From assembly GCF_044324785.1 (NCBI RefSeq), contig NZ_CP172127.1: a DNA stretch of 64,000 bases; one strand, 5' to 3'. The notes beneath the pieces were generated by a model. That model ran no database searches. It saw only the letters and a list, made by a program, of their open reading frames with translations, and was not told the DNA's origin. Source of the DNA: Escherichia coli. GTDB taxonomy: Bacteria > Pseudomonadota > Gammaproteobacteria > Enterobacterales > Enterobacteriaceae. The translations under genes were made by a program, and so were the position numbers. Of the stretch, positions 20,673-23,856 are shown piece by piece. Position 1 is the first letter of the stretch. The number at the start of each line of letters is the position of its first letter.

Positions 20673-21158
<486 letters not shown>

Positions 21159-21409
21159 TTACCCTGAACTGACGATACAACAAAGGCGCAACGCTTTTGA
21201 GATAAAGGATCGATGCTTTCACTGCTTTTACCCTCTACCATTAGGCTAATTGCGACGAGAAAGGGACGACCTATGAATACTAACGTTTTTCGACTGCTCC
21301 TGCTGGGAAGCCTGTTCAGCCTTAGCGCCTGTGTGCAGCAAAGCGAAGTGCGACAGATGAAACACAGCGTCAGCACGCTGAACCAGGAGATGACGCAACT
21401 CATTGACAT

Positions 21410-21434
21410 CCTCCACGCCCTGAAGGACGTGGAT
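21410..21434 (+). repeat. Subterminal hairpin of the IS (left copy of 14-nt direct repeat cgccctgaaggacg)
   Basis: Read directly; forms ccacgccc-tgaa-ggacgtgg stem-loop with one mismatch. Confidence 0.6.
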
Positions 21435-21445
21435 CCCTGCTACGT

Positions 21446-22653
21446 TCAGGCTGTCGCCTGAATCATTTCGGTGGGTTCCTGCTTCAACGGGCGGCCTGAC
21501 TGCACCATCCCTCCACAGGCAAGAACGGCGTGCCCCGCCGCTAAAATGTTACGAGCGCCATTTACATCGGCGTTCGCTGTATATCCACATACCTGGCATC
21601 TGAATTTACTTTGTGACAGGCGATTTTCTTTCGCTGTATGACCACAGCACGTGCAACGCTGGCTTGTGTACGCTGGCGAAACAGCAAGCACCTGACCGCC
21701 ACGCCAGAGCTGCTTGTACTCAAGCTGGCGGCGCATTTCATACCAGCCCTGATCCAGTATCGAACGGTTTAAACCTGATTTGCCCGGACATTGCGCCCCG
21801 GCTGGCTGACCGTACCCGCTGCTGACTTTGACATGTTGCTGACCTTCAAATCCTCAATGACTATCATTGCGTGGTTTTTGCTGACGGTCGTTGTGACTTT
21901 GTGAAGGTAGTCCCTGCGGATATTTGCGATACGGGAATGCAGTCGCTGTATTTTGCGTTTCTGCTTCTGCCAGTTGTTGCTGAATTTGACCTTGCGGCTT
22001 AACTGTCGCTGAAGTCTCGCCAGCGTCTTCTGGTTTTTCTGAAAACTGTTTACAGGCTCAAAGACTGTGCCATCTGACAGCGTGGCGAGTTTAGCCACGC
22101 CAGCATCCAGCCCGACCATTGATGCTGAAGGGTGAACCGGAGTTGATACTTCACTTTCTGTCTGAATACTGATGTACCACTTACCGCTGGACTGGCTGAC
22201 CGTGACATTTTTCACAACTCCCGTGACCTGACGGCTGTTCCGGTAGCGCATCCAGCCAAGTTTCGGCAGAAAAATACGGCTGTTTTCCTGATCGAGCTTA
22301 ACGCCCTGCGGGTAGCGGAATGCATCATTCTGTCCCCGCTTTTTGAATCGGGGAAAAGCAGCCCGCTTCCGGAAGAAGTTTTTGTAAGCCCGCTCAAGGT
22401 CTTTCAGTGACTGTTGCAATGGCTGTGAGGGCGAATCTTTAAGCCATTGCGTTTCAGTGGCGTTTTTCCACTCAACCAGCCAGGAAGCCATTTTCCCGTA
22501 AGGGATGTATTTATTACCGGCCTCATGATTCTCATTCTGAAGCGCCAGAGCACGATTGAAAACGAAACGACATGCGCCTGCGAAGCGCCTCATTTCACGC
22601 TCCTGTTGACCACCGGGTCTTAACTGGAATTTAAATGCCTGTAGTCGTTTCAC
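21446..22653 (-). pseudogene. tnpB: tnpB (OrfB, RNA-guided nuclease family) with -1 frameshift near 21780
   Basis: ORF track 21769..22653 (294 aa) and 21446..21736 (96 aa, zinc-finger CTCCGH...CQVCG) are contiguous TnpB sequence in different frames; plus-strand TTT run at 21779-21781 is one base short of the reading ...NVRAKSGLNRSILDQGW. Confidence 0.8.
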
Positions 22654-22675
22654 AGGTCAAATTATATTTTGGTCT

Positions 22676-23187
22676 GTGAAAAAAGAAACCGATATCCGGC
22701 GTGGAAGGCATTGTGTTTTCCTGATGCATGTTCACCTGGTCTTTGTCCCAAATACCGACGCCAGATTTTTGACCATGACGCGACAGAAAAACTACGCACT
22801 TACTTTTCAAATGTATGTGCTGATTTTGAAGCTGAACTGGTTGAAATGGATGGCGAACCAGATCACGTCCATTTGTTAATTAACTATCCTCCCAAACTGG
22901 CGATATCCAGTCTGGTAAACAGCCTCAAGGGCGTATCGAGTAGGTTACTGCGACGAGATCGACCAGATATTGCAGTCAGGTATTACGACAAAGGCGTTTT
23001 GTGGAGTCCTGGCTATTTTGTCAGTAGCTGCGGAGGTGCGCCAATATCCGTCATCCGCCAATACATTGAACAACAGCAAACACCTGGTCAGGTGAAAAAC
23101 CGCGCCTTATATCCCCGCCCTGAAGGACGGGGTTTTACGGCGCACCGGATAAAGAAACAGTCAAAATCACTCAGCAAAACAGGCTGA
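22676..23187 (+). pseudogene. tnpA: tnpA (IS200-type HUH/Y1 transposase) with frameshift near 22748-22752; 3' extent uncertain
   Basis: ORF track 22676..22879 carries ...HVHLVFVP, ORF track 22669..23187 carries KYRRQIF...DHVHLL...WSPGYFVSSCGG...YIEQQ; a single base is missing in the ccc/aaa homopolymer. Frame runs past the likely IS end. Confidence 0.7.
23112..23131 (+). repeat. Subterminal hairpin of the IS (right copy of the 14-nt direct repeat), followed by TTTT
   Basis: ccccgccc-tgaa-ggacgggg then tttt, read directly. Confidence 0.6.
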
Positions 23188-23856
23188 ATGCAAAATCCAG
23201 CAGTGGGGTTTACCTTCTGCCTGGAGCGAAAACACCGGCAAGACTGGAAAGCCAGATCGGTACTTTACGTATGTCGCTGGTGAATATTACGCCTGATACA
23301 GATGGCACCACCCTGACGCTACGTATTGAGGGCGAGTCGAATGATCCCTTGCCCGCATTCAGCGGAACTGTTGAATATGGGCAAATTCAGGGAACAATAG
23401 ACAACTTTCAGGAAATCAATGTGCAGAATCAATTGATTAACGCCCCTGCCAGCGTCCTCGCCCCCAGCGATGTTGATATTCCGTTACAGTTAAAGGGGAT
23501 TTCTGTGGATCAATTAGGCTTTGTACGTATCCACGACATTCAACCTGTTATGCATTAAACGTATTGCGGGGCAATTTTGTGCGTCCCGCAACATCTTTTC
23601 CCGTCATTTTGTTACTCCGCTTACATCACCTGGATTGATAGTAAAAGTTTGCAACAAGGGTGAAAGTCAGTACAATCCCCGCCCGAATGTGTGTAAACGT
23701 GAACGCAATCGATTACGTAAATGATAGAACTGTGAAACGAAACATATTTTTGTGAGCAATGATTTTTATAATAGGCTCCTCTGTATACGAAATATTTAGA
23801 AACGCAATTTGCGCCTTTTTCACTCCCGCAAGGGATTTTCAAACAGTGGCATACAT

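Follow-up and report, generated by a model that had tools for sequence, protein, structure and literature searches.

Two similar hairpins, 1700 nucleotides apart and in the same orientation, lie within an interrupted yajI gene in the 64,000-nucleotide stretch of Escherichia coli DNA analysed here (the window). Are they the ends of a mobile element, RNA signals of its genes, or part of the host gene? The original prediction regarded them as subterminal hairpins of the type that Y1 transposases of the IS200/IS605 family recognise, and our comparison with related sequences supports this assignment. The repeats are very probably the subterminal imperfect palindromes of the left end (IPL) and the right end (IPR) in an IS609 element inserted in yajI.

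The repeated hairpins and the IS609 copy in yajI

The 14-mer CGCCCTGAAGGACG is present on the plus strand at positions 21416–21429 and 23116–23129, where it had first been noticed, and the two copies form a direct repeat with a spacing of 1700. They are its only occurrences in the window when both strands are searched and up to two mismatches are allowed, and an exact match arose in none of 100 dinucleotide-preserving shuffles. The similarity is longer than the 14-mer, with 19 of 21 bases identical between 21412–21432 and 23112–23132. Folding of both ends gave a hairpin for each copy as single-stranded DNA, on either strand (z of about −2.2 to −2.8). The left hairpin (21413–21432) pairs ccacgccc (21413–21420) with ggacgtgg (21425–21432), and the right one (23113–23132) pairs ccccgccc (23113–23120) with ggacgggg (23125–23132), each around a tgaa loop. 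The GC stems described earlier are thus real 8-bp stems but imperfect ones: pair 6 of both is mismatched, as C·A on the plus strand and as a T·G wobble on the minus strand. Stem position 3 shows a compensatory difference, an A-T pair in one copy corresponding to C-G in the other.

Junction alignment and the empty yajI allele delimit an IS609 copy of 1746 bp (21403..23148, minus strand), which has the canonical order LE, tnpA (antisense), tnpB (sense), RE on the minus strand. It is 97.6–98.7% identical to 1748-bp E. coli IS609 copies at five different loci, and the matched copies carry RefSeq/PGAP annotation as IS609 and InsQ; in NZ_CP028680, for example, tnpA is annotated as "IS200/IS605-like element IS609 family transposase". 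The K-12 copy adjoining ydcO also matches the window element. E. coli IS609, with its IS605-type divergent tnpA and tnpB (the latter being insQ in K-12), shares gene order, ends and the TTAT target with the element described here. Alignment to intact yajI places a 5′ fragment of the gene (codons 1–43; 21273..21402, plus strand; compared with L001 and MG1655) and a 3′ fragment (23149..23558, plus strand) on its two sides, and the yajI::IS609 insertion is common to 340 of 5426 complete E. coli genomes. Both hairpins lie inside the element; rather than flanking it, as had been proposed, they are subterminal, 10 and 16 nt from its ends.

Uninterrupted yajI reads CTCA|ATAA at the insertion point, with a single TTAT and no target-site duplication. 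ATAA, which is 5′-TTAT-3′ on the minus strand of the window, abuts IS609 in all five independent E. coli insertions; each of these lies 3′ of TTAT, and the flanks on the other side are unrelated. The presence of this motif at every junction points to the minus strand as the active "top" strand. Read in the canonical orientation of the element, the repeat copy on the left of the window belongs to the right end (RE) and that on the right to the left end (LE). The ends show no terminal inverted repeats. The top strand is here the lagging-strand template, a position expected for the IS200/IS605 family (PMC5027513). With the boundaries (21403–23148) and the TTAT target now fixed and the active strand predicted, the disruption of yajI can be annotated correctly.

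Both genes of this copy are pseudogenes. tnpB (insQ; 21446..22653, minus strand), aligned to intact 402-aa InsQ copies, has a 1-nt deletion near 21778 that leaves two ORFs of 294 and 96 aa, and carries the Pfam domains HTH_OrfB_IS605, OrfB_IS605 and Cas12f1-like_TNB. tnpA (22661..23091, plus strand), which encodes a Y1 HUH transposase and was aligned to the 143-aa IS609 TnpA of L008, starts with ATT at 22661 in place of ATG and has a 1-nt deletion near 22747. Its frame matches Pfam Y1_Tnp (PF01797) with an E-value of 3.9e-38, compared with 1.8e-41 for the intact L008 protein. The two deletions make this copy 2 nt shorter than other IS609 copies, from which it also differs in the ATT codon and in its location in yajI. 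In most E. coli IS609 copies examined, tnpA is annotated as a pseudogene.

The position of the hairpins relative to the genes differs in part from the first description. The left hairpin, reported to lie within the 3′ end of tnpB, begins 13 nt past the tnpB stop codon (21446–21448). The right hairpin does lie in the extended tnpA frame, as stated; the suggested cause, the frameshifts, does not hold, because the frame runs through the hairpin and on to 23187 owing to a CAG at 23089–23091 in place of the reference TAG stop. The same CAG is found in six of seven other E. coli copies examined.

With a 1-nt deletion in both genes, the copy is non-autonomous and could move only with proteins supplied in trans; the window contains no second IS609 and no other TnpA or TnpB gene as a source of them. 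Its hairpins have the consensus form, whereas the copies of K-12, L005, L006 and L008 bear uncompensated hairpin mutations. With its ends intact despite the dead genes, the element might in principle still be moved by proteins acting in trans, or leave by a precise excision that restores yajI. The single K-12 copy showed zero transposition in mutation-accumulation lines (PMC5009759). We found no experiments on IS609 TnpA in the searchable literature, and IS609 ends or an InsQ omega RNA appear there in catalogue-type mentions only. The two hairpins are very probably the standard end structures of a decayed copy of the known element IS609, an ordinary finding, and their analysis leaves the current understanding of the IS200/IS605 family unchanged.

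Proposed guides and cleavage sites at the two ends

In a comparison with the characterised member IS608, cleavage-site and guide tetranucleotides appear at the positions given by the IS608 model. At LE, the top strand reads TTAT^ (target and left cleavage site, CL; 23149..23152, minus strand, present once in the empty allele), followed by a 16-nt linker that ends in the left guide AAAA (GL; 23133..23136, minus strand; TTTT on the plus strand), and then by the window-right hairpin, IPL (CCCCGTCC-TTCA-GGGCGGGG; 23113..23132, minus strand, from folds). By the IS608 pairing rule (PMC5934647), GL AAAA predicts a target TT.T, with which the observed TTAT agrees. At RE, the right guide GGAT (GR; 21433..21436, minus strand) stands directly 5′ of the foot of the window-left hairpin, IPR (CCACGTCC-TTCA-GGGCGTGG; 21413..21432, minus strand, from ssDNA and RNA folds); 10 nt from the other foot of IPR, the element ends right after TCAA^ (right cleavage site, CR; 21403..21406, minus strand), as placed by the junctions of the five insertions. 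GR and CR pair by the same rule (GR1:CR2, GR2:CR1 and GR4:CR4), with GR2:CR1 being a G·T wobble here versus A-T in relatives, in which CR is kept as TCAA or TCAC. A second LE hairpin, CACCTG-AC-CAGGTG (23081..23094, minus strand), recognised in the sequence and flagged in a scan for terminator-like structures, is internal to IPL, in a position analogous to that of the second hairpin in IS608, ISDra2 and IS605 (PMC5934647).

IS609 thus resembles IS608 of Helicobacter pylori in its direct-orientation subterminal imperfect palindromes with guides 5′ of the hairpin feet (PMC3201880, PMC5934647), in a TCAA cleavage site 10 nt 3′ of IPR (PMC3201880), and in insertion 3′ of a tetranucleotide without duplication (PMC3201880, PMC5934647). 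The two differ in target and left guide (TTAT/AAAA versus TTAC/AAAG in IS608), in the distance from CL to the foot of IPL (16 versus 19 nt), and in GR (GGAT versus GAAT; PMC5934647). The hairpin sequence also differs, its irregularity in IS609 being a T·G mismatch, and tnpA is inverted relative to tnpB, unlike in IS608.

From the mechanism shown for IS608 and ISDra2 we infer the TnpA binding, cleavage positions and strand specificity of IS609. When the minus (top) strand is single-stranded, each hairpin would fold and occupy one site of a TnpA (Y1 HUH) dimer. The cleavage tetranucleotides would pair with the four bases on the 5′ side of the respective hairpin foot: at LE, TTAT, located 16 nt upstream in the flank, with AAAA; at RE, TCAA, which ends 10 nt downstream from the foot of its hairpin, with GGAT. 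Cuts after TTAT and TCAA would then free a single-stranded circle and reseal yajI exactly, and the same left guide would choose new TTAT targets.

Relatives of the element conserve both the hairpin and this guide logic. The stem is kept in Pelistega, Burkholderiaceae, Streptomyces, Chromatiaceae and haloarchaea, and an alignment of 12 related right ends has 99.2% of cells paired and compensatory changes at seven of the eight stem pairs, a set found in part through a pattern fixing the inner 14 nt, which limits variation at the inner pairs. None of 500 shuffles matched the observed values, and slid controls were 39–50% paired. Among right ends, GR4:CR4 covaries (U-A in eight sequences, G-C in four), and the guide and cleavage site covary overall in 12 of 14 right ends and 17 of 24 left ends, as read from the sequences. 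In these 17, applying the IS608 rule to GL yields a CL that is found 15–19 nt upstream, and six covarying GL/CL types occur, with TTAT, TGAT, TGAC, TTAC, TCAT or TCAC as CL. IS609-like elements with the order LE, antisense tnpA, tnpB start with an identical LE hairpin in Pelistega, Burkholderiaceae and Streptomyces. This natural covariation across bacteria and archaea lends sequence-level support to the IS608 guide/cleavage-site rule in the IS609 group.

A genome-wide pattern scan agrees with a link to these transposons. Among the at least 120 matches listed, 33 have Watson–Crick complementarity at both free positions (7.5 expected), 12 of them no more than 2.5 kb from a TnpA or TnpB homologue; three further listed matches, which form the hairpin although one free pair is non-complementary, are also that close to one. 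About three quarters of the 120 matches listed, in GC-rich coding sequence and with non-complementary free positions, were set aside as chance.

The right end as part of a predicted omega RNA, and other readings of the hairpins

The right end may have a second role. The ISDra2 reRNA comprises the 3′ end of tnpB, RE and some 16 nt of flanking sequence, and the TAM is identical to the target of TnpA (PMC8612924); the sot RNAs belong to the omega RNAs and contain a hairpin of the right end (PMC12558985). A consensus fold with relatives predicts a similar scaffold that overlaps both RE and the 3′ end of tnpB (21403..21519, minus strand; RNA fold z −2.76), and the RE hairpin is predicted to be the last stem-loop of an omega RNA guiding TnpB (InsQ). 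In extent and in ending with the RE hairpin, this predicted scaffold would resemble the ISDra2 reRNA, HgcC (RF00062), sot0042 (RF02656) and RAGATH-18 (RF03064). Rfam searches of the window returned HgcC (E 0.0095), sot0042 (E 0.18) and RAGATH-18 (E 0.017), each on the tnpB strand and below threshold, and nothing in the window passes at curated thresholds (23.8 versus 50, 28.1 versus 44.9 and 17 versus 88 bits). The window element differs from those families in scoring below every gathering threshold and in its frameshifted tnpB. Two haloarchaeal loci with the same hairpin exceed the RF02656 gathering score, the hairpin being the last helix of the model.

As in the flank-derived guide and the shared TAM and target of ISDra2 (PMC8612924), the predicted 16-nt guide TGAGTTGCGTCATCTC (21387..21402, minus strand) is the yajI flank adjoining RE and, in the empty yajI allele, is immediately preceded by TTAT. 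These neighbouring yajI bases would serve as guide and TTAT as TAM, making the empty yajI site a nuclease target. For the E. coli InsQ nuclease, this provides a prediction of TTAT as TAM, together with a scaffold.

Such a role raises the question of whether the hairpin has been conserved solely as an RNA element bound by TnpB and not for DNA recognition by TnpA, which we regard as unlikely. The RE hairpin does match the terminal helix of the Rfam omega RNA models HgcC and sot0042, most relatives among the matches listed have tnpB without tnpA, and the mismatch is, on the tnpB-sense strand, a G·U wobble that RNA tolerates. However, the LE copy, which shares the sequence of the RE copy and is conserved to the same degree, is not part of any omega RNA, and the covariation of guide and cleavage site at both ends obeys the TnpA DNA rule. 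The RNA and DNA roles are compatible rather than mutually exclusive.

Each hairpin also stands just 3′ of a gene end, and the plus-strand RNA around the right copy folds at −23.1 kcal/mol and is followed by UUUU. On this basis, the hairpins could be intrinsic terminators, the right one with its TTTT ending tnpA transcripts (as had been suggested) and the left one ending tnpB, with their similarity incidental to transposition. Several observations make this quite improbable. Neither hairpin was called in the terminator-like scan; the run after the right copy has only four T, and the plus-strand stem contains the C·A mismatch. The T run is accounted for as the complement of the guide AAAA, and is replaced in relatives by CTTT, CTTG and others that track their target sites. 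The sequence after the left copy on the tnpB strand, AGGAUGUCAA, has no U tract, and a stop there would cut the guide off the omega RNA. Finally, the tnpA frame reads across the right copy in most copies. A terminator function of the right copy and its TTTT is thus unsupported.

Two further explanations have next to no probability. Like a target-site duplication, the repeats stand on both sides of the interruption in direct orientation, but the uninterrupted allele (L001), set beforehand as the test of whether they are native to yajI, reads GCAACTCA|ATAAAGAAAC at the insertion point and contains neither repeat, which rules out native yajI sequence as their source, and the same repeats accompany IS609 at four other loci. 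Similarly, REP-like extragenic palindromes processed by a RAYT (TnpA-REP) resemble IS200/IS605 subterminal hairpins (PMC3333891), but there are just two copies in 64 kb, both within the IS609 boundaries and neither of extragenic origin, they travel with IS609 between loci, and a BIME-like arrangement is absent.

A possible larger structure at the left end

Beyond IPL itself, ssDNA and RNA folds predict an outer helix at LE (23102..23143, minus strand), whose arms on the plus strand are GCGCC (23102–23106) and GGCGC (23139–23143) and which encloses GL and IPL. Its arms covary in relatives of several phyla (GTGCC/GGCAC, GAGCC/GGCTC, CGTGC/GCACG, GCTCC/GGAGC, CCGGC/GCCGG and TGCGC/GCGCA). Because spacer lengths at LE vary, we compared matched with mismatched flanks in place of column-based covariation: an outer helix of at least 5 bp occurs in 12 of 24 matched flanks versus 12.5% of mismatched controls (p 2e-4), a weaker test than a column-based one, as many arms share GC-rich motifs. 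We tentatively propose that the LE hairpin may belong, as its inner portion, to a larger, conserved and undescribed structure, in which the 5-bp outer helix would clamp the guide and the bases 3′ of the hairpin in an internal loop, pre-organised for capture of TTAT; hybrid hairpins might point the same way.

Such hybrids are found singly in some genomes and combine a left-end 5′ flank with a right-end 3′ flank. They could be minimal mobile units, or products of deletion between the two direct repeats.

Repeat hairpins and boundaries of the IS609 copy in yajI

The 14-nt repeat CGCCCTGAAGGACG occurs on the + strand at 21416–21429 and 23116–23129 exactly as originally predicted, with a spacing of 1700 and with 19 of 21 bases identical when the repeat is extended. 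No further copy was found in the window on either strand with up to two mismatches allowed, and no exact match arose in 100 dinucleotide-preserving shuffles. Each copy forms the core of a hairpin with a GC stem and a tgaa loop, also as described, at 21413–21432 (ccacgccc tgaa ggacgtgg, + strand) and 23113–23132 (ccccgccc tgaa ggacgggg, + strand). Folded as ssDNA, both ends form these hairpins on either strand (z about -2.2 to -2.8). The two stems differ only at position 3, where the change is compensatory (A-T in one, C-G in the other), and pair 6 of both is mismatched on the + strand (C.A) and a wobble on the - strand (T.G).

The locus corresponds to E. coli nrdR-yajI-tsx, reversed relative to MG1655 coordinates. 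A megablast comparison with 5426 complete E. coli genomes revealed an interrupted yajI of the same form in 340 of them; in many genomes the 1.75-kb insert is found elsewhere, and in many yajI is uninterrupted. The genes of the insert are annotated as "RNA-guided endonuclease InsQ/TnpB family protein" (Pfam HTH_OrfB_IS605, OrfB_IS605 and Cas12f1-like_TNB) and "IS200/IS605 family transposase" (Pfam Y1_Tnp), the latter appearing in one record as "IS200/IS605-like element IS609 family transposase". In the uninterrupted allele GCAACTCA runs straight into ATAAAGAAAC, and in the window these two segments flank an insert that begins with TTGACATCC and ends with GCGCACCGG. The alignment thus places the element at 21403–23148 without target duplication. 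It also shows that neither repeat is native yajI sequence, as the uninterrupted allele lacks both, and the reading as IS ends stands.

The best match to 21150–23600 (yajI::IS609 and flanks) among the 5426 genomes is only 98.7% identical, and the window's own strain is not one of them. Given this divergence and its presence in 340 genomes, the insertion appears to be an old one, passed down vertically within a single lineage. It also creates an 82-aa ORF (21213–21461, +) in which the first 43 yajI codons (signal peptide and lipobox region) are joined to 19 codons from the IS right end, stopping at 21461; a truncated lipoprotein might be made from this fusion.

Active strand, guides and cleavage sites

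We compared five independent insertions (ydcO/ydcL, yajI, ytfB/tetR, yeaQ and yedK). The flanks adjoining TTGACATCC are unrelated, and the opposite end is flanked by ATAA in all five. Read on the minus strand, the element invariably follows 5'-TTAT-3' and terminates in TCAA, which identifies the minus strand as the top (active) strand in the IS608 sense. On this strand, with ^ marking cleavage, the left end reads TTAT^, CCGGTGCGCCGT-AAAA, the hairpin CCCCGTCC TTCA GGGCGGGG, then ATATAAGGCGC; the interior carries tnpA (antisense) followed by tnpB (sense); and the right end reads GGAT, the hairpin CCACGTCC TTCA GGGCGTGG, then AGGATG-TCAA^. In this order, the window-right repeat is the left-end imperfect palindrome (IPL) and the window-left repeat its right-end counterpart (IPR). 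The window maps to 0.43 Mb of MG1655 coordinates, reversed, and the GC skew of its + strand is negative over most of its length. From the E. coli replichore layout, we take the minus strand to be the lagging-strand template. Members of the IS200/IS605 family excise from and insert into this template (PMC5027513).

In IS608, TnpA recognizes both subterminal imperfect palindromes on the top strand. Its cleavage sites follow TTAC, 19 nt upstream of the IPL foot, and TCAA, 10 nt downstream of the IPR foot; they are located by base pairing with the tetranucleotide 5' of each foot (left guide GL AAAG, right guide GR GAAT), G1 with C-3, G2 with C-4 and G4 with C-1 (PMC3201880; PMC5934647). Comparison with these characterized ends shows that the window copy shares TCAA at 10 nt, whereas its GR is GGAT (pairing G:C, G.T, T:A) instead of GAAT. 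Its GL is AAAA, 16 nt from TTAT (A:T, A:T, A:T), so that the target shift from TTAC to TTAT is paralleled by a guide shift from AAAG to AAAA. A second left-end hairpin (23081–23094, CACCTG-AC-CAGGTG) is placed as in IS608, ISDra2 and IS605 (PMC5934647). The proposed reading as same-orientation end hairpins of IS200/IS605 type is supported, with guides and cleavage sites that fit IS608 and stems that covary in relatives. What they represent is the textbook arrangement of ends in an element that is already catalogued, IS609. The TTTT following the right copy, suggested to act in a terminator, complements GL AAAA; different bases stand there in relatives with other targets, and a terminator scan did not call the right copy with TTTT.

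Relatives, covariation and a putative omega RNA

Scanning one genome per species for CNNCGTCCTTCAGGGCGNNG yielded at least 120 matches. Both free pairs are Watson-Crick complementary in 33 of the 120 matches listed (7.5 expected); the others listed are mostly chance occurrences inside GC-rich coding sequence. Among the matches listed, the hairpin opens the IS609 layout (hairpin, antisense tnpA, sense tnpB) in Pelistega indica, a Burkholderiaceae MAG and Streptomyces kebangsaanensis, precedes a lone tnpB at other loci, and lies just after tnpB in Halobiforma, Chromatiaceae and other genomes. Twelve related right ends, found by their position after tnpB, were aligned: 99.2% of cells are paired, with compensatory changes at seven of eight stem pairs, although five of the twelve came via a pattern fixing the inner 14 nt, which limits inner-pair variation. 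None of 500 shuffles reached the observed values, and slid registers were 39–50% paired. The pair between the fourth bases of GR and of the right cleavage site alternates between U-A (GAAT with TCAA) and G-C (GAAG with TCAC). Of 24 left ends, 17 carry, 15–19 nt upstream, the tetranucleotide that the IS608 rule predicts from their GL; six types occur (TTAT, TGAT, TGAC, TTAC, TCAT and TCAC).

From E. coli through Betaproteobacteria, Actinomycetes, Chromatiaceae and Halobacteria to a Methanomicrobiaceae MAG (loci L009–L128 among the matches listed), there is hardly any change in the 20-nt hairpin CCCCGTCCTTCAGGGCGGGG or the right-end tail AGGATGTCAA, a cross-domain conservation that is unusually strong for a 30-nt DNA motif. 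Two further observations go slightly beyond the descriptions that we found. A predicted outer helix of 5 bp surrounds the left guide together with the left-end hairpin (23102–23106 with 23139–23143) and recurs at the related loci L054, L026, L027, L035, L013, L022, L053 and L062. Its arms vary between relatives with complementarity kept, seven arm types being observed, and at least five Watson-Crick pairs form in 12 of 24 left ends versus 12.5% of mismatched controls (Mann-Whitney p 2e-4); we found no description of it in the literature examined. Furthermore, the loci L044, L069 and L127 in other genomes hold single hairpins without genes between, combining an LE-type 5' flank (e.g. TTAC-CACAAGCACCGT-AAAG) with an RE-type 3' flank (AGGATGTCAA or AGAACGTCAA). 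They could be deletion products between two direct-repeat hairpins or minimal one-hairpin elements.

The right-end hairpin may also serve in the TnpB guide RNA. Sub-threshold Rfam matches on the tnpB strand comprise HgcC (21390–21513, E 0.0095), RAGATH-18 (21476–21519, E 0.017) and sot0042 (21412–21573, E 0.18). The HgcC and sot0042 matches span the repeat and finish at or just past the IS end, and in the HgcC alignment the repeat forms the last helix of the model. The hairpin is likewise the final helix at two Halobiforma loci that match RF02656 with 98 and 96.5 bits, above the gathering score of 88. RF02656 RNAs are omega RNAs, with a right-end hairpin among their characteristic features (PMC12558985). 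The reRNA of ISDra2 is made up of the 3' end of tnpB, the RE and a guide of about 16 nt taken from the flank, and the TAM is the TnpA target (PMC8612924). A consensus fold of seven relatives retains the hairpin and a long-range CCUG/CAGG stem, and a z of -2.76 was obtained for the fold of the 117-nt window RNA. The predicted IS609 omega RNA would finish with the guide TGAGTTGCGTCATCTC (21402 down to 21387). This sequence lies directly 3' of TTAT in the empty yajI allele, from which we infer that intact InsQ, the IS609 TnpB, would cut the empty site.

State of the genes and ends in the window copy

Compared with seven further E. coli copies (1748 bp), tnpB lacks one base near 21778, giving ORFs of 294 aa and 96 aa, and tnpA lacks one base near 22747, past codon 29, and starts with ATT, not ATG. 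The window contains no second gene for TnpA or TnpB, and both hairpins, guides and cleavage sites have the consensus form. Judged from its sequence, the copy is therefore non-autonomous with intact ends.

Two remarks on gene overlap in the original prediction need revision. The left copy does not lie inside tnpB, whose stop codon is at 21446–21448; the hairpin begins 13 nt past it. An extended tnpA frame does run through the right copy, but frameshifting is not the cause: the TAG stop of the reference 143-aa IS609 TnpA (L008, another E. coli copy) is CAG at 23089–23091, and likewise in six of the seven further E. coli copies compared, and the frame consequently continues through the left-end hairpin and over the junction into flanking DNA, to 23187.

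Single uncompensated stem mutations, in one or both end hairpins, occur in the copies of K-12 (LE, GGATGGGG), L005 (RE, TGACGAGG), L006 (both ends) and L008 (RE, CCAAGCCC), consistent with decay of immobile copies; the K-12 copy did not move in mutation-accumulation lines (PMC5009759). Finally, a spacerless palindrome with 17-nt arms (TTTCACAGGTCAAATTA / TATTTTGGTCTGTGAAA; 82% complementary) at 22648–22681 covers the start codons of the divergent genes tnpB (22653) and tnpA (22661); it could be an operator common to both, or a structure occluding the start sites.
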